From Craspedostauros australis (taxonomy: Eukaryota), in the NCBI GenBank assembly GCA_030167865.1, contig JALAGF010005392.1, forward strand, positions 51,051 through 71,050: a DNA stretch of 20,000 bases, in the 5' to 3' direction. The notes under the pieces were generated by a model that was not told where the DNA came from, made no database searches, and saw only the letters and a program-made list of their open reading frames with translations. The first letter of the stretch is position 1; every line of letters begins with the position of its first letter. The position numbers and the translations under genes were made by a program. Below are positions 441 to 19,870 of this stretch, piece after piece.

Positions 441-1269
441 TGTGGAAGGGTTGTCTGTTGCGTTCAAGCACCTTTCGCCGTGGGTATATTTGTGCTCAGC
501 AGAGCGAAGGCAGCAGCGACGACGATGCTGAGGATGAGGTTTTACTTGTGGTGCCGTTGATGATGCCCTTGGTGATAATGCTCTTGATGATGATGCTCGG
601 GATAGTGCTGTTCGTTCTTGACGGTGCTCCCTCTCATCCTCTCGACTTGCACCACGCCGTCGCTGCACCGTCGCTGTGGGGCTTGACATGGAATTTGCAA
701 CCGGCTTCGTGGGAGAAATGAACGAAGAAATGTGGTTTTGTTTTCTTCCGCCACAAATTCGAAATTGTCGCAGCGACATGTGTGACACACATGATACGTT
801 TGAAACAATCGAGTCCTGTTTGGCGTCATCCTTGAAACAATCCCGAACTGTTCCCATTTGTGTCAGAATAGTGTTCGCTTCCTTTCACGGCGATGTTCGG
901 TTTTGTCGTTGATGTTGCTTGAGCACAAAAATCAAGACGAGAACGTGGACGAAACCAGACCTGTCCGAAGTGAGACAGAGCGGAAGGGGAGGTGATGTCG
1001 GAAATGATGCCCCTGCGCCGGCGGAGATGATTACCACACTGCACGCCTGCCATCTTCGTAGGTATGAGTAGATTGTGCGATATCCACAGCATGGTCAGGA
1101 CCTGTTCAGTTGAGAGCGCTCACAAACACAGATAGAGAACAATTGAAAGGCCTGCTGCAACATCGGGCGTTCTATTGGTGCAGGCACATCAGGATCAATT
1201 CAATCATCGCCGTGTTCCATCATTCTCAGCAAAGCCATCAGCATCGCCATTGTGGCTGCGATTGTCACC

Positions 1270-3426
1270 ATGAAAGGCAACAACGACAGCAGTGGCCGAA
1301 GTCCAGCACCATCACCATCGTCGTGGATTGGTGTGGCACAAGGTTCAGATTTCCCCCTCTCGAACCTTCCATTCGGCGTATGTTCCCTCACAACGAACAA
1401 GGGACAGCGTGATGACGTGACATCCACCGCGAAGAGTCGGTGCGTCACCATTGTGGGAAGTACGATCGTCGATCTGCAAGTGCTACAGGAGGCTGGCTTG
1501 TTCGATGATATCGACCAGCTGGCAGCGCACTCCTTCTCCGAGCCATCGTTGGATGACTTCGTTTCGCATCCGCATCACGTTTGGTCACAGGTGCGTCAGC
1601 GATTGACATCCTTGCTCTCCGCGGATGGGGATGATGCATTGCACACAAACGAAGGGCTCAAGAGCATCGCCTTGCTCTCTGAAACGGACGTCGTCATGGG
1701 CCTTCCTCTCAAAATCTCAAGCTTGGCGGGATACTATTCGTCCCGTTCTCAGTTCGCCCAACTCGCAAGTGGCTCTGACACGGCAGATGGCAAAGGGCAG
1801 AGCGGGGGTACAGAAATGCCAAATGCACCATCCCTCCCCATCGGATACAACGCCAAGGCATCATCTGTGTTCGCGACTGGAACGTCAATAAATCGCCCCA
1901 ACCTGTCCTCTGGCGGTCAAGCTTCGAATGTTGGTGCGCCAACAGACTTGAAAGTGGAGGCATCCAAAGCACTGGATTTTGAAGCGAAGCTGGCGTTCGT
2001 CGTTGGCGGCCCGCCCAACGCTGCGGGCAAATCGGAGGCAGCAGCAGAGGCGCAGCAGCGCGTGTTTGGATACTGCCTCGTCAATGACTGGACGGCGCGC
2101 GATGTGCAAGCATCTGAAGCCATTCCTTTCGAATCCAAGAATTTCGCCACCACCATGTCACCATGGATTGTGACGTCGGAAGCGCTGCAGCCACTCGCAC
2201 CATCTCCACCGTCTGAATCTGCGGATACATCACCTGCGACGGTGGATTTTCACAACATCCAGGGCGCATCACCAGCGATCACCATCGATGTTCGAATTCA
2301 ACCAAAGGTGCCCTCAAGCAACAAGCAGCCGCTCTCTGTGGAACCCGTCTGCACGCCGGTATTCGGCCCTGATTGCTGGAGTGCCGCGCAACTACTCACC
2401 CATCATTTTTGGGCAGGCTCCGTGGTGAAGCCTGGCGACATCTTTATGATGTCCGCGCAATCCCAAAGTGATCCAAAGCTCTCCAGTAGTCTTTGGGAAC
2501 TAACCGACGGTGGCAAACATGAAGTGGATATCGGAAGCGATCAAACGAGAAAGTTCCTTCAAGATCGCGACACTGTTGTCATGAAAGGCTGGTGCTCGCA
2601 CAGTGCCAATCCATCTGTGGGGAGGATCGGCTTTGGACCCTGCACCTCGACGGTCCTTCCTCCTGATCCTCCTGAACCAACCAAGTCGCCATCGAGCGGC
2701 GACAATCCGCCGATGGCCACACCGTCATCTGGATTCCATTCCTTCAAGCTGTACGGGTACGCAACATCTTCCTCCACATGGCGTGTTCGTGTCGTGCTCG
2801 AAGCCAAGAGGATCACCTTTGAGAACATCCCATTGAACCTTCAGGCCGGCGAGCACAAGACGCCTGAGTTTCTCGCCAAGAATCCTCATGGACAGGTTCC
2901 CGTATTGGAATATACGCACACCGACGGAGACTCGAGCCAGACAAGGTACATCTCGCAGTCTGTCGCAATCATCGAGTTCTTGGATTCAATCTTCCCCAAC
3001 AAAAGGTCCTTGATTCCTCGCGATCCAATCGATTACATCGCAGCGCGGGAGATGGTGGAAATCGTGAACGCTGGAATCCAACCTCTGCAAAACAAGATGG
3101 TCGTTGCCAACCTGGAAAAGCTGTCTGAGGGCAAGATCGTTGGCAAGGAGTATGGGAACATGGTCATCGCCAAAGGGCTCAGAAGTTTTGAGACGCTGGT
3201 GAAGGCCCGCCAAGCCACGAACCCCGGTCCCTTCAGCCTTGGCACTTTCGCGCCGACAATCGCTGATGCCTACCTCATCCCACAGCTGTTCAACGCCGCG
3301 AACGTGTACGGCATCGATGTCATCTCCGATTTTCCGGTGCTGGCACAGGTGGAGGAGGCATGTTCCAAACACCCTTGGTTCATTGCGGCACATCCATCGC
3401 AGCAACCAGACGCACCCAGAACATGA
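1270..3426 (+). CDS. Fumarylacetoacetase-like domain fused to GST-zeta/maleylacetoacetate isomerase (718 aa from ATG 1270)
   Basis: FAH motifs: SDFPLSNLPFGV, LPIGYNAKASSV, LDFE, LVNDWTARDVQ, KNFATTMSPWIVT, RKFLQDRDTVVMKGWC, RIGFGPC. A Pro/Ser linker (~2650-2740) is followed by GST-zeta motifs: LYGYATSSSTWRVR, NPHGQVPVL, SQSVAIIEFLD, NAGIQPLQN, TIADAYLIPQLFNA, AAHPSQQPDAP. Uninterrupted ORF; the track start at 1252 is a GTG and the first ATG is at 1270. Confidence 0.92.
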   Translation: MKGNNDSSGRSPAPSPSSWIGVAQGSDFPLSNLPFGVCSLTTNKGQRDDVTSTAKSRCVTIVGSTIVDLQVLQEAGLFDDIDQLAAHSFSEPSLDDFVSHPHHVWSQVRQRLTSLLSADGDDALHTNEGLKSIALLSETDVVMGLPLKISSLAGYYSSRSQFAQLASGSDTADGKGQSGGTEMPNAPSLPIGYNAKASSVFATGTSINRPNLSSGGQASNVGAPTDLKVEASKALDFEAKLAFVVGGPPNAAGKSEAAAEAQQRVFGYCLVNDWTARDVQASEAIPFESKNFATTMSPWIVTSEALQPLAPSPPSESADTSPATVDFHNIQGASPAITIDVRIQPKVPSSNKQPLSVEPVCTPVFGPDCWSAAQLLTHHFWAGSVVKPGDIFMMSAQSQSDPKLSSSLWELTDGGKHEVDIGSDQTRKFLQDRDTVVMKGWCSHSANPSVGRIGFGPCTSTVLPPDPPEPTKSPSSGDNPPMATPSSGFHSFKLYGYATSSSTWRVRVVLEAKRITFENIPLNLQAGEHKTPEFLAKNPHGQVPVLEYTHTDGDSSQTRYISQSVAIIEFLDSIFPNKRSLIPRDPIDYIAAREMVEIVNAGIQPLQNKMVVANLEKLSEGKIVGKEYGNMVIAKGLRSFETLVKARQATNPGPFSLGTFAPTIADAYLIPQLFNAANVYGIDVISDFPVLAQVEEACSKHPWFIAAHPSQQPDAPRT

Positions 3427-8136: not shown

Positions 8137-9276
8137 TCATCCTGTCGAAATGAAGTGTTCGGAGCGGTTGATGTTTAAATCATAGTGGAATTCCCAATGA
8201 TTCCAAACGAAACCCAGCTCGTTCAATCTGGCAATGCGAGCCGCGGTCAGGTGTGTGGATGAGCGCACATGCCCGTTGCGATTGCCATCGCGAGGGAATT
8301 GCTTGGCGTACAGCTTGCGTTGCGAGCTCACCCAGTTGGCGAGTTGCTGGTTGGCATGGGAGATGGGAACCAGGCAGTTGCCGTGTTCCTCTTTGTATGC
8401 CTTGAGCTGCTCGAAGCGCGTCTCCCATTGCCGTTCTCGATTGGACATCCACCAGTTGCGATCGATATCTTCCAAAGCACGGATCTGATCCTCCTGCAAC
8501 GCGCAGGGTTCTCCACGCCGACGATTCATAAATTCCCTGCGCTGCCGGTACACCCACTGTCCCAGCGACGATTGGCTTGATAACTTCGCGAGTGGCGATG
8601 TTTGCGTGAACTGCTCCAGCTCGCCAAACCGTCGCCACCAGATGGAATGCGTGCGTTGCTGCTGAAGAGGCGAGTCGATGGCAACGTGCGCTGCCGGGAC
8701 GCTCGAGGCAACGCCCTTCTGCTTGGTGCTTAATGCCGATGCATCCCAGCAGAATCCAATGCTACTCAATTGTTGAATCCGCTGCTGCGTCAGAGACGAG
8801 CTGATTCCATTCTTGTGCTTGCGGTAGTGCTGCCGTTGCTTGTTTACGAAGTTTCCCAATGACGGGTTAGGTGGATACCGCTTGGGAACGAGCATGTGGC
8901 CATGCTCTTCCTTGAACTCCATCAGCTGATTGATCCGATCATTCCAAGTTGAAGGTGCACAGATTGGTGTTGCAGTGGCTGTGGCTGTGTCTGTCGTTGC
9001 GATTGACTGCCCATCATCTATCGTAGTGCATTGTAAGGCGATGAATGAAGCCTCCCTTCGATGATGCTCCCAAGCAAAGCGAACGTCATTCCTTCTCTCG
9101 TTTCTGCTTGGCTTGGCGTTTGTTCGTGGATGCCAATGCCTCGCACATAGCTGCGGTTGTTGTTGTCGCAGTCGTCGCCTCAATCGTCCTCCTGCCGATG
9201 AAAGAGCCTCTGTTGACAATGTGAAGCACCAAAGCAACAGCAATCTCTGAACATGCTGAAACGGTGCCATGGCCAT
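8137..9276 (-). CDS. Helicase-associated (HA, PF03457-type) repeat protein with N-terminal signal/transit-like leader
   Basis: Repeats: WNDRINQLMEFKEEHGHMLVPKRYPPNPSLGNFVNKQRQHY…LTQQRIQQLSSIGFCW; degenerate WWRRFGELEQF…LGQWVYRQR…QIRALEDI; WETRFEQLKAYKEEHGNCLVP…LANWVSSQRKLY…LTAARIARLNELGFVW. No helicase core. Start at 9276 or 9270 (MAMAPFQ…) preferred over 9420. Confidence 0.85.
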   Translation of the reverse strand: MAMAPFQHVQRLLLLWCFTLSTEALSSAGGRLRRRLRQQQPQLCARHWHPRTNAKPSRNERRNDVRFAWEHHRREASFIALQCTTIDDGQSIATTDTATATATPICAPSTWNDRINQLMEFKEEHGHMLVPKRYPPNPSLGNFVNKQRQHYRKHKNGISSSLTQQRIQQLSSIGFCWDASALSTKQKGVASSVPAAHVAIDSPLQQQRTHSIWWRRFGELEQFTQTSPLAKLSSQSSLGQWVYRQRREFMNRRRGEPCALQEDQIRALEDIDRNWWMSNRERQWETRFEQLKAYKEEHGNCLVPISHANQQLANWVSSQRKLYAKQFPRDGNRNGHVRSSTHLTAARIARLNELGFVWNHWEFHYDLNINRSEHFISTG

Positions 9277-10319
9277 GGAATTTGGCTTTTCGCCTCCCTC
9301 GAAAGGTTCTCCTGTGTCACGATCCTTAGTGTTGTTGTTGGTATCGACTTCGGTGTTGTGGGTGACGCACAGCATGAAGGTCCGTGAGAGTTCGGCTTCG
9401 CTCCTGGCTCGCACGACCACGCATCTTCAGAGAGGTAGGTACCCTGTCGTGGATGGTCTGGAGTGGATGTGGGGTGTTGTGGTGTGGTGTGATGTGATGT
9501 GATGGACATCATCGCACAAACGTTGGCGGCGCCTCATGTTGTTCTCTGATGGCCAATTCGTCTGGACGTCGTACGGCAAGAAAAACGTCAGGTGGCACCC
9601 GGAGGTTAAACTATCTCATCTCCGTTTGTTCTTTGGCATTCTCAAGTCGCAGATGACGTCACAGAATACGATGGTGTGGTGATTGGACGTACTCACGGTC
9701 AGACTTTCGCGCCACGAGTGAACCGAAACATCAATCGTGTTTGGGCATTTCCACCAAGTTGTGATCGTGTCTCGGATCGTCGTTTTTGTCGCAATCCCCA
9801 CCATGTCACATCATCATCGTCATCATCTCTGACCCCTTGCTGTCTTCGACCCGCCTGTCGCAACGCACAACCCATCATCTCTCTTGGGTCCACGATCGAG
9901 GGAACTTCGCTCCGAGGCGATGTCCACACCAAAGTCGAGATTGTATGAGGAATCAATGAGAGGATGAACACGAACCAAACATGAACTAAACACCATGCTA
10001 ACATCAACCAAACAACACAAGATCCTTGATGATACTCTCCCCTTGTGTGATGCGTGTACTCCGTTCACATCCAAACCAAGTCGGACTCGTACCCCCACTC
10101 TGCCCTTTGGCCAAACAGCCACCTTCGCCCTCAGAAAAGCACCACAGCTTCCATCCTCATCACCACCGCTGAAGCAACACGCAACATCGCCACAACCTTA
10201 GCTGCTCACGCTTCAGCAGAAGTAGCAACACCAACAACCCCTTGCTCCTTCCTCCCATTCTTGCTCTCGCCCTCGTTCGTTGACCACCGTCGTTCGCACA
10301 CAAAACGAGTACAGCGATA

Positions 10320-10973: not shown

Positions 10974-11160
10974 CCTACGATCGTGGAAGATGGTGTTGGT
11001 TGATAGTTGTCTGTTTGCTATTTCATTACTTGGTTACTCCGATCCTCTCGGTGTACACCAGTTGTCTTACCCGATGCTCTTGGTGCTTCAATCTGTTTTG
11101 TAGATTCGGTCTCCGACTATGAGTCGGTACGCGAGATCCTCTCTCGCTCCTCTCTGTATT

Positions 11161-11180
11161 CTCTCTCTCTCTCTCTCTCT
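11161..11180. repeat. (CT)10 microsatellite
   Basis: Ten perfect CT units within a pyrimidine-rich tract (~11138-11181). Confidence 0.95.
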
Positions 11181-11333: not shown

Positions 11334-11431
11334 NNNNNNNNNNNNNNNNNNNNNNNNNNNNNNNNNNNNNNNNNNNNNNNNNNNNNNNNNNNNNNNNNNN
11401 NNNNNNNNNNNNNNNNNNNNNNNNNNNNNNN
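11334..11431. other. Assembly gap (98 N)
   Basis: Run of N; the true distance and linkage between the two halves of the window are unverified. Confidence 0.99.
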
Positions 11432-11646: not shown

Positions 11647-11662
11647 ATAAATAAATAAATAA
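11647..11662 (-). repeat. (TTAT)4 3' terminal tail of the retrotransposon
   Basis: + strand ATAA x4 at 11647-11662, directly after the 3' UTR; the sequence beyond it is AT-richer. Confidence 0.8.
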
Positions 11663-11805
11663 CTCAAGGATTAGTCGGTCTTATGCTGCGACTGCGTCGG
11701 CGACGCTTTTCTCCGCCTCCTTTCAACTCCATGTGGAACACATGGAGGGGGTACGGAATCTGAGGTATGTGTATTGGACTCTGTCGGTGTTCTTGCGTGG
11801 TATTC

Positions 11806-14800
11806 TCACTTGGGTGCTTCTGTCGGACGTCGAATTTGGAAACCTGTGCGCGAGTGGACTTGCATCCACTTGGCTAGTGGTCCGGCGGCCATGCGGGTAT
11901 GGAGTAGCCTTGCGGCCTGCTCCATCCACAGGGCTACGCTTGCTGCGTCGGCGTCCCTTCCTGGGTAAGACTTGCGGATGCGCTTGTGCGCAATATTGTT
12001 GTCTTGGAGCTTGCCGGCCAGATCTTCCGACCTGGCTCGCATGGCCTCCATCATATCTTGCTCAGCTGACTCGGCTTCGTGAAACATGTCATGATTTCGA
12101 AGCCGCCATTGCTCCCACGCTACTTTCCATACGCGTCGGGCCAGCTCTGCCCCCCACGTTAGGGGCGATCGTCGCGATCCCTGACTCACCAGGAAGTCTG
12201 TCTGTATGCTCACCCACTTGGACCCGATCATTCCTCGCGAGAGGGAGATTTGGCCTATCTGTCGTTGCTGCTCCACTGCTTCCGCCGTTGAGCCTCGCAC
12301 GCTAGTCGATTGCAGGTAGGCCGCTCCGGCGAACTGGCTTTTCAACATCGCTGTCATTGCCGCCGTGACTTGTGGACTCGTCGGGTACTTCGCCATCCAC
12401 ATCCGGATTCCGAGTAGGTGCTTCTTCGTCGCCTCCTTCCGGTGCTCCGCGGGGCATTCCCAGATGTGCTTCGAAGTCTCTTCCGCACCACAACTGGGGC
12501 ATTGGCTGGATTCTCGGAGCCCCCACTGCTTCATGCGTCGTCCCACGGCTGCTTCCCCTGCGACCAGCTTGAACGTCAGCGCCGCGCTGGCGTGATCCAG
12601 ACCCTTGATTGCCCTGCTTACCACCGGCCAACTGACTTCCGCTGCCTGGTGTACCACTTTCCGTTTGCGTAGGATCTCGAAGGTTGATGCGGCCAGACCT
12701 TCCTCGGCTATATGTGCGTAGCGCACCGAGGTTATCTTCATATGCCTGAAGAGGCATACTTCCTCCCCTTCGATGATCCCATCATAAGGCGTGGCTCCCT
12801 GGTTGGATCGTCGTTGCGCCCCGGCCAGTCTGTCAGCTTCCACGTTCATTCTCGCCCAGTCGTCCAGTTCGTGCCATGGCTTGCCGTCGTCTTGGTGTCC
12901 CTTCACGTGTCTTCCGACGATCTCTATCGGTAGTCGTCGCATTTTGTGCCTGGTGGCCCTCATGAGATCTGCGTCGGTCGCTTTGGCGGTCATGTACCAC
13001 TCGGTGTCCAGAGCCTTGAGGGCTCCCACGTTGTCGCATCCTACGGTGGCTTTTCCGGCGAGGATTCGCTGGGAGGTGCATATGCTTTGTAGCATTACCA
13101 TGAGACTGTACAGCCCGGACAGCTCCGCCCGGTGCGACTGCATGGTGTCGCTGCTGCGAGGTGTCCCGCACGTCACCCAGATCTTGGTTGTCTGGCCTCG
13201 AGACTTCCCGGTGACGACCGCGCCTGCTGCGCCTTGCCCGTCGGCGACGGACCCGTCACTGCAAGCGGTGAGCGTGCCGTCGCGGATGGCTTCTCCCAAT
13301 ATTGCTTCCTCTCCTTCCATCTCCCATGCCGCTATCGCCCACGCCGAGGATTCTGGCAGTTGCCTGATGGTCTCTTGTAGGTTAAGCGCTGCCGGCTGGG
13401 GCATGCCTGGTATGCCTGGCGCCGATGCCGTGATCGTGATGTTGGGTCCGCTGTGGTATCCGTCCACCAGTCCCGTGCCGTGCGTCGTCCTGCCTCTGGT
13501 TTCGGTGTATTCTTTCTTGCGTCCACGTCGAGGGATGCGCCTGTAATATATTGCGTCTTGGCCTGCCGCCGTCACTCTGTCTGCTCCGGGGTCATACCGG
13601 AATTGGGGCACCTGGGAGCTGTAGCTGCGCCATTGACCCAGGGACTTCGCCAGCGTTCTTGTCTGCCCTCGTGTGGGCGGGTAACACCGGTCGATCGCCT
13701 TCTTCCATTCCTTCCACTGTGTGGGCGTGGGCTCTCCTACCGGGGGCCATTGCAGCCGGCTCCGGCGCAGTGGTATTGGCCCAGGAGAAGTAGACTCGGC
13801 TAGGACCTCGTCTCCGCGTACATTCGTTATATCGGAAACCCATAGCACTTTCTTCGCAATGCGGCATTGGTTGACTGCTTGGAGCGAAGCCTTGGGTAGG
13901 TCGAGCGCAAGCACCCGTTCCATGATGAACGAGTCGCCTTCTCTGGGCTTCGGTATTGACTCCGTCTCGAACTGGAGCTTGACGCTCACGTGATTTAGCT
14001 CTGTCCATACTGATTGCATCCAGGATGGAGACAGTACCCCTTTCCATTGGCAATGCTTCCGTGTGAACACCTGGTCCACTCCCGCTTGCAACTCCAGAAT
14101 GCTCAGCGCATTGCGCATTAGCTTTCCGGTGATCGTAGGTTGTCCCCAGTGCTTGACGATTTCCTCGATATGGCGAGTGATCTGAGTGTAATACAGGTGC
14201 GGGATCCCGAGGCCGATGGTCTTCCGTGGCCCGAACACCAGGGCTCGCGACACGTTTCGTTGTATCCCCATTGCAGGCAACGCTGATTGAAGCATTGGCC
14301 TCATTACGCCTTCGGATTCCTCCTTGGAGAACGTGGCGCTTGCGAGCGGATATTCCAGAGTCTTCATAATGGTGGAGTGTAGGGCTACTTTCGCCTGTCC
14401 TCGGAGAAGACCTCCCCGTCGAACTGCGTCCGCCCACTTGCGGGCTTTTTGGGTGTACATCCGCACGTTGTCTTGCTGATCTCCGTCGTGACGGACCATG
14501 ACTCCAAGCGCTTTCCTTGACTGGCTGGCTGACAGGCGAAGTAAAGTCGACCTTTCGTTGCTGTCCGGCTGCCTGATGCTGATGCTCCCTGGGATTTCTT
14601 CCTCATCGCAGTACGCCCATTCCTTGCCGTCCCATTTGAATGCTAGCAGGTACCAGTAGCTCTTTTTTGGCTCGAGGGCACCGCCTGTGGCTCTGAGCAT
14701 ACCTTCCCACGTGTCGACCACCCGTTGTATCTCCTTTATGCATTCCTCGTTGTTGGTCGGGTCCGTCTGTATGGTGTGGATAATGTCTGTGTCGTCGACG

Positions 14801-17490
14801 AAGGAGAAGCACACTAGCTGGACCGTCTCGTTGGTCACGGGGTGTCGTGTGGTGAATCCGTAGCCTCTTTCGGCCATGGTCTTCATCAATGGTGAGCTCA
14901 TGGCGACCCATCCGGCTGGCGATATTCCCAGTCCTTGCAGTAGTCCTTGAAGTTTGGGCTCTCTTTTCGGATAGGTGGTTCGTGACAATCCGTAACCTGT
15001 TAGCACGTGATGCTTCATCGCCTCCACTGCTGCTACCACGCTCGTGCTTACGACTGGTGGCACTCCGATGCTACGCATGCTGAGTTGCAATGGTACGTGT
15101 GCCATTCGGTCGTAGCAACTTTTCGCGTCATTCGAGCACACGAAGCTTGTGCACCCTGTGCTCCGGATTATGTCGCTTGTGAGCCGGTTGTTCAGGCTTA
15201 CTTCCGCCGCGCTGCGCTGCTTCCGACTTCCGTATTGCTCTTCGGGTAGTAGGCCGTGGGCTTCTGCGTGGCTCATCATTTCCCGCCCTATCTTTTTGAG
15301 GTTGGCATTGAAGTCTCCTTCTACTAAGCTGATGGTACGGAACCTTTCAACTCTGTAGTTGCCTTCTTCTTTCAGCAGCGTGATGTCTGAGCAGCGGAGC
15401 CACCTTTGCAGGTTGTACCCTGACCTTAGCGAGACCTCGCGCATGGCTGCATCAGCCGTTGCGACCTCGGGGATTTTGGCGTTGGCCTTCCACATGCCGA
15501 AGTGCAGACCTGATGGCCCTGATGCCGTGCGCTCTCGAGCTTTCGCCCAAGCTTGCTGGTGCTCCTTGGTGGTAATCTCAAACCGGATATCGCTCCACAA
15601 TGGTGACTGGCTGGTTGCGTGCAGCTGCTCCAGCAATGCCATGGAGTACTGGTCCATGGAGTTTCCGTGCCGACGTGCTGCGAATCTGATGCCTCCTTGC
15701 TCCAAGCTGCGCTTGAACCCGTCGGATTGCATCGGCGTGACATATGCTTGCCTATACTTCTGTTCGTTGGCTTTCATGCACTGGGCGATGACTTCCTGCT
15801 CTTTGCTGAATGTGCGTTCTTCCCCATTTCCATCCTTGGCGATGACTGCCGTGACCTTGCTTCCGCTAGAGTCTCCTTGTATTGCGCGTTTGATGGACCT
15901 GAAGGTCTCCGCTGTCTCCTCTCTTGTGATGAGGATGGCGAGTGCGGTGCTGGCGGGTGTGTTGCCTGCCTCCGCCATTTCGTCCGCTCGTTGTTCGAGG
16001 AATGTCCGTCTGTGTGTGAGAGCTTCGCGTTTGATTCGTTTCCAGTGCTCATGGGCTTCTTTTCTTTTCCGTTGGATGTCGTCCAGAGTGAGGTGTGCCG
16101 TTGGTTGGCGTACGCCTGCTGCTTTTTTGGCACGGTCATACCATCTGGCACTGACCCTTGATCCCTGCCGTCGCTTCCACGCTATCTCCCAGAACTTTTT
16201 CTCCATCGCCGCCTTTTTCGCTTTCGGGGAGTATGGCACTCTGCCCGCGAACACTCGTCTGGATCCCCGTTCGGCCTGCGTCACGATTCTCGAGCGCTCC
16301 GTGTCGATGTCCTCGATCTCCGCGATAATAGCGTCCGTCATTGCTTCACTCCTTCGCACTGCTGCCAACACTGCCGCCGACCGCTGTGTGAGCTTGGCGT
16401 CTTCATAGCCGGCTGTCACTGCTTTCTGATATCTTTTCAGCGTGGCTGGCTTGTTGGTCTGCAATCGTCTGCCTTCGAACTTCTGTGTCGGTCGGCTGCG
16501 TGTGCCGAAGATGGATTCACTGGATATTTCTATCCAGGCTGTGCGGTGGTCCCAGCTTCCGAATTGACTGTAACCCGCTCGTTGTACCATCACTGATTCG
16601 GACACCCAGATGCTGTCTATCACTCTTTCCGATTCCGATCGTATTTGGGTGGACACCGGTGCTTGGCTCGGATGTTTGCTGAGTATTGTTTCCTTCAGCC
16701 CTTGTCGTTGTAGCATCGTTGCCATCTGCGAGTTTGTGACTTGCATGTTGATGTCGCCACCAATGATGATTGTTTCTCCCGCTTCGTGCCATTTGTGTAT
16801 CTCCTCTTCTAGGTCTTGTATGAGCATTGCAATGGGCGCCGTTGTGATCCCTTCAGACTCCAACCAGGTTGCGTGCTGATTTGCTACCGTGCGCGGCCCT
16901 TTTCCGGATGACGTTGGGATGTAGACGCTGACCACTCTCACGGCTTTGTCGTCTTTTCCTCGAAGTGTCATGCTGGCCCATCTGCCTAATTTCCTTGGGT
17001 CCTCGTGGGAGAGTATGTGCCTTCCCGCTATGTTGTTGATGAGCAAGCATCCTGTCCCTCCCCATTGCCTTACCGGGCCCATTTTTTCCTGTTGGTTGTG
17101 TGCCATGTTTTGGCGCCACGAGCTGAACTGGCCTTTGATGCGCGAGTGCCACGAGTGGCGTTTCGCGACCTTGGACCAGTTCAAGCCAATCTCGGAGAGC
17201 AGAACCACGTCGAGCTTCAGTTGTTTAGTCCACTCCCATGCGTCTCTGTTCTTCCAATGGCCGGTCTCTTCGGGTAGACAGCCCACGTTGAGAGCACCTA
17301 TGCGTAATGTGTGGTGCCCTTTGTCGCGAGGGTTGTCTCCCCAGTAGGAGACCTGGGGGTCGCGCTCATTCCGACGCGCGTCCTCCCCTGATGCATCCGT
17401 TAGGCTTGCGGAGGTGGGTGTTGATGCTTCCCGTTCCTCCAGCCCAACGTTAATCAGTGGATTGGCCCCCTGCCGTGCTTGAGCCGGGGG
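11806..17490 (-). CDS. Retrotransposon ORF2 (pol): APE endonuclease, reverse transcriptase, RNase H, CCHC zinc motif; stop-to-stop frame of 1894 codons with no AUG before the endonuclease
   Basis: APE: LRIGALNV, DVVLLSE, VVSVYIP, IIIGGDIN, IDSIWVS, WDHR. RT: RTISLVEGDFN, EQYGSRK, SNDAKSCYDR, LQG..ISP, FSFVDDTD (~14790), LEPKKS, LGV. RNase H: CSDGS, RAELSG, GCDN, HVKGH, NVEADRLA (~13260-12830). CPSC…H…C at ~12454-12502. I extended the frame by hand upstream of the track's GTG (17286) to the TGA at 17493-17491. Confidence 0.93.
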   Translation of the reverse strand, partial: PPAQARQGANPLINVGLEEREASTPTSASLTDASGEDARRNERDPQVSYWGDNPRDKGHHTLRIGALNVGCLPEETGHWKNRDAWEWTKQLKLDVVLLSEIGLNWSKVAKRHSWHSRIKGQFSSWRQNMAHNQQEKMGPVRQWGGTGCLLINNIAGRHILSHEDPRKLGRWASMTLRGKDDKAVRVVSVYIPTSSGKGPRTVANQHATWLESEGITTAPIAMLIQDLEEEIHKWHEAGETIIIGGDINMQVTNSQMATMLQRQGLKETILSKHPSQAPVSTQIRSESERVIDSIWVSESVMVQRAGYSQFGSWDHRTAWIEISSESIFGTRSRPTQKFEGRRLQTNKPATLKRYQKAVTAGYEDAKLTQRSAAVLAAVRRSEAMTDAIIAEIEDIDTERSRIVTQAERGSRRVFAGRVPYSPKAKKAAMEKKFWEIAWKRRQGSRVSARWYDRAKKAAGVRQPTAHLTLDDIQRKRKEAHEHWKRIKREALTHRRTFLEQRADEMAEAGNTPASTALAILITREETAETFRSIKRAIQGDSSGSKVTAVIAKDGNGEERTFSKEQEVIAQCMKANEQKYRQAYVTPMQSDGFKRSLEQGGIRFAARRHGNSMDQYSMALLEQLHATSQSPLWSDIRFEITTKEHQQAWAKARERTASGPSGLHFGMWKANAKIPEVATADAAMREVSLRSGYNLQRWLRCSDITLLKEEGNYRVERFRTISLVEGDFNANLKKIGREMMSHAEAHGLLPEEQYGSRKQRSAAEVSLNNRLTSDIIRSTGCTSFVCSNDAKSCYDRMAHVPLQLSMRSIGVPPVVSTSVVAAVEAMKHHVLTGYGLSRTTYPKREPKLQGLLQGLGISPAGWVAMSSPLMKTMAERGYGFTTRHPVTNETVQLVCFSFVDDTDIIHTIQTDPTNNEECIKEIQRVVDTWEGMLRATGGALEPKKSYWYLLAFKWDGKEWAYCDEEEIPGSISIRQPDSNERSTLLRLSASQSRKALGVMVRHDGDQQDNVRMYTQKARKWADAVRRGGLLRGQAKVALHSTIMKTLEYPLASATFSKEESEGVMRPMLQSALPAMGIQRNVSRALVFGPRKTIGLGIPHLYYTQITRHIEEIVKHWGQPTITGKLMRNALSILELQAGVDQVFTRKHCQWKGVLSPSWMQSVWTELNHVSVKLQFETESIPKPREGDSFIMERVLALDLPKASLQAVNQCRIAKKVLWVSDITNVRGDEVLAESTSPGPIPLRRSRLQWPPVGEPTPTQWKEWKKAIDRCYPPTRGQTRTLAKSLGQWRSYSSQVPQFRYDPGADRVTAAGQDAIYYRRIPRRGRKKEYTETRGRTTHGTGLVDGYHSGPNITITASAPGIPGMPQPAALNLQETIRQLPESSAWAIAAWEMEGEEAILGEAIRDGTLTACSDGSVADGQGAAGAVVTGKSRGQTTKIWVTCGTPRSSDTMQSHRAELSGLYSLMVMLQSICTSQRILAGKATVGCDNVGALKALDTEWYMTAKATDADLMRATRHKMRRLPIEIVGRHVKGHQDDGKPWHELDDWARMNVEADRLAGAQRRSNQGATPYDGIIEGEEVCLFRHMKITSVRYAHIAEEGLAASTFEILRKRKVVHQAAEVSWPVVSRAIKGLDHASAALTFKLVAGEAAVGRRMKQWGLRESSQCPSCGAEETSKHIWECPAEHRKEATKKHLLGIRMWMAKYPTSPQVTAAMTAMLKSQFAGAAYLQSTSVRGSTAEAVEQQRQIGQISLSRGMIGSKWVSIQTDFLVSQGSRRSPLTWGAELARRVWKVAWEQWRLRNHDMFHEAESAEQDMMEAMRARSEDLAGKLQDNNIAHKRIRKSYPGRDADAASVALWMEQAARLLHTRMAAGPLAKWMQVHSRTGFQIRRPTEAPK

Positions 17491-19870
17491 TCAAGGAGTG
17501 GTTGGGCTCTACCTCTGCATGTTTGGCCCGTAACTCCTCGATGATGCGGTTTTTCTCGATGAGTTCTTGTCGTTGTTCCTCCAGTTTTTGTCTGTTGGTC
17601 TCCGCTTGCTGCGCTTCTCGTGCTTGTCTCATGACTGTTGCTAGCTCGTCCTTCCTCATTTCCTCACTTTCATCGGTGGACTCTGGTATGCTGTAGATGG
17701 TGGACGCGCGGGATTTTCCGCATTCGGATCTGAACGTTTGGAATGACTCGTCTTCCAGTCTTGGTTTTTTCGCCACGGGGGATCCTGGGAGGGAATCGTC
17801 TTCTATTTCTTCCATCCCTTCGATCTCCACTGGTCCCATCTCCTCATCCATTATGAAGTCCAGCTCTCCTTCGAACTCCACGTCCTCGTACCCTTTGCCC
17901 GTTGCGTCTCTGGCGTATCCAGCACTCATCTCCAGAATGTTGTCGTCGAACCAATCGTCGGTGGATGAATTGATTTCCGTTCTGCACCGGATGGCGATGG
18001 AATTGAGGATGTTCTTTGCCTGGTCGTAGCGGTCGTCGAACGCTACTATGCTGAGCGCGTCTTCGTCTCCGTCCACCATATGGGTGGTGCTGACGTCGTG
18101 GATGAATGGATTCCCTTCCGGTGTGCGCTGATTGCTCAGGAATTCGCGAAGGGTGGTGGTTTTCGTGTCCCCGTCGGGGGTGTCGAGAGCGACGTCACCG
18201 TCGAGCCGAAAGCGCTTGAGCTGCCGAACGTAGCGTTGGTGCTTGCGAGTCATCTTTCTGAGCTTTGCGGCTGTGTCGGCGCCGATGGTGGCAGTGCCCG
18301 GATTTGGGACAAACCTATAGTTCAGCCCTCCTCGGTCCGCGCCCTTCATGTTGAACACTTTGCCCAGCGCCTTTGCCACTTTCCGTGCATGAGTGGTGTT
18401 TGCGTGAAGGTGTAGGGCGACCCACGGCGTGTTGATCCACGTGCCTCCTTTCTTTTTGTGCTCATCTCTTGTTTCGTCCGACACCTGCCCCAGGAATTTG
18501 GTCCTGCCTCCTACTTTCAGTTTGGGCTGAATCTTTTCCAGCAGGCCGTTGATAACTCCGATTGTCTGTTTTGCGTTGGTGAAGTTTCCTGAGTAGGCTA
18601 GGAATCCGACATCCGTGATGTTCTCCGCGTCCTTTAGGTCTCTGATGTACGCGTACTCTCCCGTGGCATATCCTCCTTCCATTTCTGCTCGGCGACTTGT
18701 CAGTGCGTTGAGGTTCTGGCTACCACCCAGCTTTAGCTGCATGTATACGTCCGTCTCCTTGGCTGTAGGTTTGGCCCTGCACACGAACTTCTTGAGCTCG
18801 TCCCAGTTCGTTGGGATTGGCTCGCTCTCGGAAATGGTGCCTGCCGACTTGTGCCGCTTGTACCAGGGGTATATGACGAGCTTGGGCTCTATCGTTAGCG
18901 CGTGGTCAAACCACAATTCGAATCTGGATTGGAAGTCTCGGATTGGCGTCGATGAATTTTTTGGGATGGCCAGTCGGAGGTCGAAGCGTTCGTTGAATTT
19001 TCGTTTGGGGGTTGCCATCATTTGGGTTGAGGATGCCTGTACTCTGATCCATGGTGCGTCGTCGCCTGGTTTCTGGGCTTCCGGAGTTTCCTCAACGGAT
19101 CCATCTGGTGCCACTACTCTGACTTTGGTTTTTGGAGGCTTTTTGACCACGTGTTGTGTTAACGATGTCTGTCGGGTGCGTTTGACGAGGATTGATTCCA
19201 ACTGGATTCCATCCATGTCATCGTCGCTGTCAGAGGATGCGTCTGCTGCCATGATTACATCGGAGTATTGGCATCCCATGTACCGTACGGCTGCTGCCCA
19301 TGCCAACGTCATTTGGTTCCTTGCCATGGATTTGTTGTCCACGTGCATTTCCATCTTAAAGCACTCAGCTGGGTCCGTCTTGGATAGGTCTGCCACCAGT
19401 TGCTTGATTTTCACACGTTGGGGAGCATCTTGTGCCACTCGGTGGGTTCCGAATTTGTTGGTTCGCCCGTCCATCACCTTCTGGAAAAACTCCGAGAGCT
19501 CCTGTGTGCTGGGCATGTGGGACGATGCTGTAGATGTGTCCTTGCCTTCCCACTCCGCTTTCTGGATGTACATTCGTTTGGCTCTGTCATGGAGTGAGGA
19601 TGGTCCTTCGTCATAGACGTCTGTAGCCCTGATGGCTTTGGCGTTTTCCGCCACCTGCTTTGGAAGTTTTTTCCATCGTGTTGTTTCCGGTTCGTACCAC
19701 TGGATGGCGATTCTGTTCTGTTTCTCCATCATTTCGGCTGCCACAACCTTCGGATCTGGCTCCGGAGGTGGCTTGGGTCCTCCTGTTTCTCCTGATGGTG
19801 TGCCTTGGTTCATTGGGCGCTCCGTATCGTTGGAAGTTTGCTTCAAACTTGTGCCGTTTGTTGACGTCAT
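17450..19870 (-). CDS. Retrotransposon ORF1 (806 aa; putative RNA-binding/chaperone protein with acidic tract and C-terminal coiled coil)
   Basis: Long ATG ORF (ACCATG context) directly upstream of ORF2 on the same strand. Disordered N-terminus, globular-looking middle, D/E-rich segment and heptad-like MRQAREAQQAETNRQKLEEQRQELIEKNRIIEELRAK. Role assigned by position. Confidence 0.85.
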   Translation of the reverse strand: MTSTNGTSLKQTSNDTERPMNQGTPSGETGGPKPPPEPDPKVVAAEMMEKQNRIAIQWYEPETTRWKKLPKQVAENAKAIRATDVYDEGPSSLHDRAKRMYIQKAEWEGKDTSTASSHMPSTQELSEFFQKVMDGRTNKFGTHRVAQDAPQRVKIKQLVADLSKTDPAECFKMEMHVDNKSMARNQMTLAWAAAVRYMGCQYSDVIMAADASSDSDDDMDGIQLESILVKRTRQTSLTQHVVKKPPKTKVRVVAPDGSVEETPEAQKPGDDAPWIRVQASSTQMMATPKRKFNERFDLRLAIPKNSSTPIRDFQSRFELWFDHALTIEPKLVIYPWYKRHKSAGTISESEPIPTNWDELKKFVCRAKPTAKETDVYMQLKLGGSQNLNALTSRRAEMEGGYATGEYAYIRDLKDAENITDVGFLAYSGNFTNAKQTIGVINGLLEKIQPKLKVGGRTKFLGQVSDETRDEHKKKGGTWINTPWVALHLHANTTHARKVAKALGKVFNMKGADRGGLNYRFVPNPGTATIGADTAAKLRKMTRKHQRYVRQLKRFRLDGDVALDTPDGDTKTTTLREFLSNQRTPEGNPFIHDVSTTHMVDGDEDALSIVAFDDRYDQAKNILNSIAIRCRTEINSSTDDWFDDNILEMSAGYARDATGKGYEDVEFEGELDFIMDEEMGPVEIEGMEEIEDDSLPGSPVAKKPRLEDESFQTFRSECGKSRASTIYSIPESTDESEEMRKDELATVMRQAREAQQAETNRQKLEEQRQELIEKNRIIEELRAKHAEVEPNHSLTPGSSTAGGQSTD

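Follow-up and report, generated by a model that had tools for sequence, protein, structure and literature searches.

A conserved hairpin before the ORF1 stop codon and an ATG-less ORF2 suggest termination-coupled reinitiation in a non-LTR retrotransposon of Craspedostauros australis

The window analysed here is a 20,000-nucleotide (nt) stretch of DNA from Craspedostauros australis (GenBank assembly GCA_030167865.1, contig JALAGF010005392.1, positions 51,051 to 71,050), and all coordinates below are counted from its first letter. Its minus strand carries two long overlapping open reading frames (ORFs) of what appears to be a retrotransposon lacking long terminal repeats (non-LTR), and the question addressed is how the second of these, ORF2, comes to be translated. 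ORF1 (19870..17450) encodes 806 amino acids (aa) from its first ATG at 19870 to the TAA at 17452-17450, and its frame is open already from 19993. The ORF2 frame (17490..11806) opens after a TGA at 17493-17491 and runs for 1894 codons to the TGA at 11808-11806. Compared with ORF1 it is in the +1 frame, and the two share 41 nt. An initial annotation of the locus had suggested three ways in which ORF2 might be reached, namely a programmed +1 frameshift, reinitiation at a non-AUG codon near the ORF1 stop, or splicing of a 160-nt intron. The coordinates on which these suggestions were built, that is the ORF1 stop, the ORF2 opening, the +1 frame, the 41-nt overlap and the 160-nt interval that would join the frames, were all found to be correct.

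ORF2 contains endonuclease, reverse transcriptase, RNase H-like and zinc-knuckle regions. The endonuclease region starts with the motif WGD at 17343-17335, followed by LRIGALNVG at 17307-17281 (17343..17281 in all), where RIGALNVG corresponds to codons 63-70. The W/F-G-D/N and R-I-x-x-x-N motifs align across relatives, and Glu100 of the LLSE motif is invariant in nine of nine aligned members of the ORF2 family. Not until codon 129 (17106-17104) does the ORF2 frame contain an ATG. Because this codon comes after both RIGALNVG and the invariant Glu100, it is situated too far downstream to start a working endonuclease, as the initial annotation had also maintained. Judging from these motifs, translation of ORF2 must begin upstream of the stretch from WGD to LRIGALNVG (17343-17281).

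On its own, the ORF2 of the window gives only sub-threshold Pfam matches, to Exo_endo_phos_2, zf-RVT and Exo_endo_phos. It aligns over 65-96% of its length with nine database proteins of 1804-1976 aa, which are 21-34% identical to it, and among these nine RVT_1 is found in eight (best E 1.5e-11), Exo_endo_phos in five, zf-RVT in four and RNase_H in one. By the domains of its relatives, ORF2 thus has an apurinic-like endonuclease at its N terminus and a reverse transcriptase after it, the arrangement found in long interspersed nuclear elements (LINEs) of the apurinic endonuclease (APE) type. A separate upstream ORF1 and a 3' simple-repeat tail are also present, as in LINEs. From its sequence, the element is classified as a full-length, apparently intact APE-type LINE, and since both ORFs are uninterrupted this is a young copy. 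A search of Protein Data Bank sequences with a profile of the ORF2 family gave no match at E<=0.01, which places the clade far from the LINEs that have been studied. The clade seems to be deep and mostly uncharacterised, with members in protist and marine metagenome contigs, and a literature search for a name of it returned nothing usable.

When it comes to ORF1, no Pfam family was matched at E<=0.01 and a word-based protein search gave no match. An exhaustive HMMER search found 62 homologous proteins at E<=0.001, of which 27 were at or below 1e-10 and six at or below 1e-30. ORF1 accordingly represents a conserved protein family despite the lack of a Pfam domain. A resemblance to Rad4/BHD clusters in a protein atlas had scores below 0.9 and a recognition below the useful level, and was taken as noise.

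To place the junction between the two ORFs in a comparative frame, metagenome contigs were scanned with the ORF2 alignment. This gave 528 matching stretches. A relative is encoded by 450 of them, and of these the 80 best were retained as loci (L001-L080). The ORF2 N-termini were aligned in 58 rows (57 loci and the window), each with an ORF2 of at least 1000 codons and a frame closed upstream within the contig. Fourteen rows were dropped, as no upstream ORF had been captured or the endonuclease motif was unaligned (L001, L006, L011, L022, L025, L041, L051, L052, L055, L056, L067, L069, L075, and L078), leaving 44 junctions whose categories were counted by hand from a table.

The ORF2 frame is -1 relative to ORF1 in 24 of the 44 junctions, +1 in 18 and 0 in two. 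The +1 offset of the window is thus not conserved among its relatives. In 21 junctions an ATG is found within 11 nt of the ORF1 stop: 13 are of the AUGA type, two read UAAUG (L003 and L071) and one has its ATG at +5, while the +1-frame members have it at -5 (L032, L035, and L047), -8 (L045) or -11 (L079), counted from the first base of the stop. Overlap or close apposition of stop and start therefore seems to be the norm of the family. In eight junctions, belonging to six families, the catalytic Asn is not preceded by any ATG. These are the window, L010, L013, L024, L070, L072, L073, and L074, the last three being members of a single family whose junction is identical in contigs of three assemblies. 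The remaining 15 have their first usable ATG 20-112 nt downstream of the stop or further off, or have a degenerate junction. In L043 the sole Met is found one residue before the catalytic Asn.

A tree, obtained by a quick IQ-TREE run only, groups the window with L001, L002, L003, and L012 in a five-row clade with a support of 100 in the Shimodaira-Hasegawa-like approximate likelihood ratio test (SH-aLRT). Within this nearest clade L002 has AUGA, L003 has UAAUG, and L012 has an ATG at +5. The AUG-less lineages are scattered on the tree (the window; L010 with L013; L024; L070 with L072-L074), and the sister of L024, L031, has an ATG at +56. This distribution indicates that the ATG has been lost several times in elements that are otherwise intact.

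These counts bear directly on the first suggestion of the initial annotation. A programmed +1 frameshift within the 41-nt overlap, for instance at the stop itself (GAU UAA C) or at a run of C residues, would yield an ORF1-ORF2 fusion of about 2,690 aa, and the hairpin described below would then be a 5' stimulator. That ORF2 is in the +1 frame, lacks an ATG and stays open across the ORF1 stop fits with such a shift, as does the fact that six of the eight AUG-less junctions, corresponding to five of the six AUG-less families, are +1. However, the offset varies among the relatives as given above, L024 is AUG-less and yet in the -1 frame, and no heptamer or other shifty motif is common to the +1 overlaps. 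Nor have any descendants with the two ORFs fused been found in the 80 loci, where no ORF exceeds 2,090 codons.

The overlap contains a hairpin at 17494..17462 of the minus strand, with a 5' arm at 17494-17482, a 7-nt loop, CAAGCAC, at 17481-17475 and a 3' arm at 17474-17462. It has 11 pairs, the stem being interrupted by single unpaired bases that face one another, and a spacer of 9 nt separates it from the ORF1 stop. The TGA that closes the ORF2 frame upstream is situated within the 5' arm, as is a run of five C residues (17490-17486), while a run of five G residues (17470-17466) is part of the 3' arm. This stem is the minimum-free-energy structure of a 54-nt fold, at -15.1 kcal/mol. By itself it would not attract attention, and the significance of the window hairpin comes only through comparative data.

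For this comparison 29 loci were picked by hand, one for each near-identical group and each with an ORF1 tail, and the last 60 nt of ORF1 were folded and compared with windows tiled along the same ORF1. In 15 of the 29 loci no background window was as stable as the junction, and in 17 the junction fell at or below the 5% tail. In folds of 70 nt a hairpin of at least 6 bp was the largest helix in 26 of the 29, and among these 26 the spacer between hairpin and stop was 6-10 nt in 20, the commonest length being exactly 9 nt, found in nine. If a stem is required to have at least 8 bp and to end 6-10 nt ahead of the codon, one is present at the ORF1 stop in 20 of 29 loci as against 342 of 6898 internal ORF1 positions (5.0%), by a criterion that was fixed only after the 70-nt folds had been inspected; the corresponding binomial P is about 5e-20, calculated over loci that are not independent of each other.

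Within the subclade formed by the window, L001, L002, and L003 the stem can be aligned. It has ten aligned pairs with 97.4% of the cells paired, as compared to 12-51% for slid controls, and four of the ten pairs display compensatory double changes. The single unpaired cell of the window in this aligned helix is a G opposite an A. The loop CAAGCAC is invariant in the four, whose ORF2 proteins are only 33-34% identical. Where the window has its C5 and G5 runs, L002 and L003 have different sequences that are again complementary, and the two runs are thus best understood as the arms of a selected stem. The initial annotation had noted the runs correctly and had taken them as sites allowing +1 re-pairing, a role against which this covariation counts. 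It had proposed that the offset, the absence of AUG and covariation of the stem be compared among relatives; as shown here, the offset is not conserved, AUG is absent in eight of 44 junctions, and covariation is found in four of ten pairs of the subclade stem.

The hairpin is found in AUG-bearing and AUG-less lineages and in both frames, and it keeps its spacing to the ORF1 stop even when the first ATG is tens of nt away on either side. It thus appears to follow the ORF1 stop and not the ORF2 ATG. In its presence, position and covariation the hairpin has the properties of an upstream cis element at a fixed distance from the stop, for which a functional requirement is putative. The last 40 nt of ORF1 are GC-rich in the 29 loci (62% vs. 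48% for the whole of ORF1). The motif CCGG occurs in the ORF1 tail of 18 of them where 2.7 would be expected, and GCCGG in ten where 0.6 would be expected; many stems have their base built from these motifs. GGGG is found within the last 40 nt of ORF1 in 11 of the 29 loci vs. 0.9 expected, an enrichment that may be explained by the hairpin arms.

The stem ends are also alike in sequence. In L037, L039, L045, L050, L072, and the window (17466-17462) the stem ends in GGC followed by CA, and exactly three ORF1 codons follow the GGC in the first five of these and four in the window. Many stems likewise start with GCCGG. These shared ends suggest that the hairpins of deep lineages may have a common origin. 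A literature search, in which few subscription journals were covered, did not find an upstream, position-locked and covarying hairpin described at the ORF1 stop of a LINE clade.

The hairpin data further weaken the case for a programmed frameshift. As described above, the two homopolymer runs pair with each other, and L002 and L003 show covariation there with sequences of their own; the same hairpin is found at the same spacing before AUGA and UAAUG junctions that need no shift. It also covers the window in which a shift would take place and is not situated 3' of it. The initial annotation was thus right that the stem at 17494-17462 is real and matters, being conserved and covarying, but an element linked to the ORF1 stop is a better interpretation of it than a 3' frameshift stimulator. 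A shift might still be considered for L010 and L013 in particular, where no near-cognate start codon is found near the stop. For the window it is regarded as unlikely.

Splicing fares considerably worse. A GT...AG intron at 17512-17353 would join ORF1 to ORF2 in frame, as removal of 160 nt shifts the frame by +1 and brings the ORFs together just before the WGD motif, and strings resembling AG|GTRA are found in L010 and L013 near the opening of the ORF2 frame. The same excision would, however, remove the conserved and covarying hairpin together with the ORF1 stop to which it is locked. Between the ORF1 stop and WGD, five AUG-less lineages have no stop in the ORF2 frame, over about 208 codons in total by hand count, and an intron is improbable because intron sequence would not be expected to stay open across them. 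No intron-less fused copies were found among the 80 loci. The possibility that the AG|GTRA strings shared by the window, L010, and L013 mark a 5' splice site under conservation was rejected, since the GT strings of L010 and L013 fall in the hairpin loop or the 3' arm and are parts of the hairpin. Taken together, the splice proposed in the initial annotation is extremely improbable.

It could also be envisaged that ORF2 is reached independently of ORF1 termination, through an internal ribosome entry site (IRES) or a processed sub-genomic RNA, the hairpin being the entry or processing signal. A conserved structure directly upstream of the point where ORF2 is entered would be in accordance with this, and the IRES idea has been raised for non-LTR elements in a review, as far as the available part of it goes (PMC3894237). 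The hairpin nevertheless tracks the ORF1 stop at 6-10 nt even where the first usable ATG is 20-112 nt downstream or upstream of that stop, which makes such a route very doubtful.

If the ORF1 stop is what matters, the codons close to it deserve attention. In the window a start near the stop can be found only as near-cognates, namely CUG at 17457-17455, in the ORF2 frame and beginning 5 nt before the first base of the stop (-5), and AUU at 17454-17452, which is at -2 and has one base in common with the UAA. Geometrically, the closest that an ATG in the +1 frame can come is 5 nt before the first base of the stop. This is the offset used by AUG in L032, L035, and L047, and at the same offset GUG is found in L070 and ACG in L054. 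The junctions read AUGAUUAG in L035, AUGGUUAG in L047 and L032, CUGAUUAA in the window, GUGAUUGA in L070, and ACGAUUAG in L054. In L072 an ACG is found at -8, the offset of the AUG in L045. The CUG of the window thus matches the start offset of these three +1-frame relatives and is the proposed restart codon, with AUU as the alternative.

A defect specific to this copy has to be weighed against these matches. According to such an explanation the active family has an ATG at 17457, and the window carries an A-to-C change or a homopolymer error of the assembly, so that no ORF2 protein is made from it. The nearest relatives do have an ATG at the homologous place. In MAFFT alignments the window furthermore has two extra nt in its G5-CC stretch as compared to L001-L003, and the assembly is a draft with a gap, a 98-nt run of N at 11334-11431, about 215 nt beyond the 3' tail of the element. 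Without the two extra nt ORF1 would end at a UGA overlapping the CUG, which is the exact counterpart of AUGA. The CUG remains in either case, so an indel, real or artefactual, would change the offset and restore no ATG. About 2,690 codons are otherwise open, and a lone lesion hitting a start codon of 3 nt is unlikely a priori. Intact AUG-less elements are moreover found in six families, with near-cognates at the same offset. A defective or misassembled copy is consequently considered distinctly unlikely.

Upstream of the closing stop the ORF2 frame also contains ATG codons, in the window at 17520, followed by two codons and then a stop. In L010 (~2874-2912) and L013 (~2883-2921) exactly 12 codons separate an upstream ATG of the ORF2 frame from the next stop, which is in the hairpin. 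The peptide of L013 starts with MTTPRR, resembling the ORF2 N-termini of L033, L029, and L039. An ancestral start that is read through was considered, but two readthroughs would be required in the window, and the upstream ATG of L010 and L013 falls in conserved Asp-Asp codons of ORF1. In these two the ATG may be a coincidence or the remnant of an earlier start. A resemblance between STPTSASLTD of the window ORF2 and EPPTSASLPS of L029 is weak and of low complexity, and was not used as evidence.

Of the three possibilities raised by the initial annotation, non-AUG reinitiation near the stop is the one favoured by the comparative evidence, and our best reading, to which we would assign a probability of roughly 55%, is that ORF2 is translated by termination-coupled reinitiation at a non-AUG codon. 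Ribosomes finishing ORF1 at the UAA (17452-17450) would be held by, or positioned against, the hairpin at 17494-17462, and a fraction of them would restart within a few nt. Most relatives would restart at an AUG that adjoins the ORF1 stop or shares bases with it. In the window a near-cognate at the same place would be used, CUG at 17457-17455 or possibly AUU at 17454-17452, and the product would be a separate ORF2 protein made at a low level, 1883 aa when read from the CUG. The anatomy of the junction, its conservation and the match in position are observed; that ribosomes restart, that the hairpin has a part in it and which codon they use is what we infer here, and hairpin-positioned reinitiation throughout the clade would be the most economical reading of the junctions.

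Some precedents make such a mechanism plausible. The termination upstream ribosome-binding sites (TURBS) of RNA viruses permit reinitiation at near-cognates such as CUG at about 45% of the wild-type level or less, still with initiator Met-tRNA and independently of Kozak context, according to the accessible part of PMC10275272. For influenza B BM2 the excerpt available of PMC3035654 states that the distance between the ribosome and the upstream element outweighs the stop-start spacing, and motif 1 is there proposed to be in an apical loop. Human LINE-1 (L1) ORF2 translation is described as AUG-independent and as needing a completed upstream ORF (PMC4091050, available in part), and the Bombyx element SART1 couples its ORFs through UAAUG (PMC3894237 and PMC10275272, likewise). 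These reports would support the feasibility of near-cognate reinitiation in the element discussed here.

Several observations weigh against termination-coupled reinitiation, or at least against its simplest form. Taken alone, the stem of the window is no better than chance (z = -0.61, with 49 of 200 shuffles as stable or more so), and its junction is only at the 8% tail of its ORF1 windows. The stem is weak, with single bases unpaired in two places, and a 70-nt fold of the window prefers another pairing, while the 60-nt and 54-nt folds give the conserved hairpin with the 9-nt spacer. The late fixing of the stem criterion and the relatedness of the loci, mentioned above, belong here as well. 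A stem ending 9 nt from the stop would sit partly inside the terminating ribosome. No further copy of the family of the window was found, the best protein relative being 34% identical. One MAFFT alignment sets the AUU of the window under the ATG of L001-L003 and another a neighbouring position, so that the homologous position is resolved to about 3 nt and the choice between CUG and AUU is left undecided by alignment. Near-cognates at the expected offset come from few lineages (3/6 at -5). The main misfit to a simple near-cognate model is presented by L010 and L013, which are AUG-less and +1 and have no near-cognate codon from -11 to +6; restart might be codon-independent there, or another mechanism might operate.

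A more speculative extension can also be outlined. The hairpin might be a clade-wide cellular counterpart of the TURBS that in AUG-less +1 lineages, including the window, has been taken over to stimulate, from the 5' side, a +1 shift at the stop codon, giving an ORF1-ORF2 fusion, so that reinitiation and frameshifting would be interchangeable outputs of the same signal. This is considered a long shot.

The 5' end of the element is situated at the edge of the window. At its other end the element has a 3' untranslated region (UTR) of about 145 nt (11805..11648, minus strand), which contains two short, perfect palindromic stems at ~11745-11729 and ~11707-11695 and a short (ATTT)n tail at ~11662-11648. 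The second stem with its AAAAGCGUC flank resembles the 3' UTR of the distant relative L012, and this stem may be the 3' recognition stem for the reverse transcriptase. The tails vary within the clade, from the short (ATTT)n of the window to a long (TGTAAT)n in L012, where it is found at the contig end, and poly(A) in L002. A (GA)n repeat is found at ~11160-11180. Domains were also recognised in two other ORFs of the window. An uninterrupted ORF of 759 codons on the plus strand (1147-3426) encodes the N- and C-terminal domains of fumarylacetoacetate hydrolase together with an N-terminal glutathione S-transferase (GST) domain, the C-terminal GST match being weak and sub-threshold; it apparently combines two successive reactions of tyrosine degradation in a single polypeptide. 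On the minus strand an ORF of 429 codons (8137-9426) contains three helicase-associated (HA) domain repeats (E 1.3e-50).

Translation of ORF2 in LINEs has been called an open question in the part of PMC3894237 that was available. Only a few mechanisms have been dissected, and what is known in principle comprises non-AUG, termination-dependent ORF2 translation from L1 and stop-start coupling from SART1. The clade described here constitutes a natural comparative series, in which the same hairpin precedes AUGA, UAAUG, AUG, CUG, GUG or ACG at -5, or no candidate codon at all, and in which both offsets are represented. Should the hairpin turn out to signal reinitiation, the viral TURBS would have a structured analogue that is encoded by cells, and the clade would be a ready-made mutational series for start-codon tolerance. 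When it comes to annotation, lack of an ATG is no reason to label the ORF2 of these elements a pseudogene.

Ty1, Ty3, antizyme and prfB are programmed +1 frameshift sites, and like the window they have a downstream ORF that is in the +1 frame and lacks a start codon. Unlike them, the junctions described here have no conserved shifty codon with a slow A-site codon, no conserved offset and no 3' stimulator.

SART1 of Bombyx is closer. As far as the available parts of the sources describe it, it also has a bicistronic non-LTR RNA in which the ORF1 stop overlaps the ORF2 start and in which RNA structure is needed for coupling, and its UAAUG is found again in L003 and L071. The SART1 structure is, however, situated downstream of the stop, while the hairpin here is upstream and ends about 9 nt before it. 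The element of the window further differs in being without an AUG, and the two clades are unrelated at the sequence level.

The TURBS of caliciviruses and influenza B virus have, in the accessible portions of PMC3035654 and PMC10275272, an upstream cis element at a fixed distance from the terminating ribosome, an AUGA or UAAUG overlap of stop and start such as is seen here in the relatives, tolerance of near-cognates like CUG at reduced efficiency, and a motif that has been proposed to be in an apical loop. The motif defining the TURBS has a UGGGA core complementary to helix 26 of 18S rRNA. The loop in the subclade of the window is CAAGCAC. The viral elements are also described as largely single-stranded or metastable, whereas most hairpins here are stable stems of 10-17 bp. 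TURBS are known from RNA viruses, while the hairpin described here belongs to a cellular retroelement. Human L1, finally, is similar in that its ORF2 is translated in an AUG-independent manner, dependent on the upstream ORF and with low output (PMC4091050, citing Alisch et al., 2006, in the part available). According to the same text L1 has a 63-nt spacer between its ORFs and the 3' end of its ORF1 is dispensable, while the clade described here has overlapping ORFs, with a conserved and position-locked hairpin at the 3' end of ORF1.

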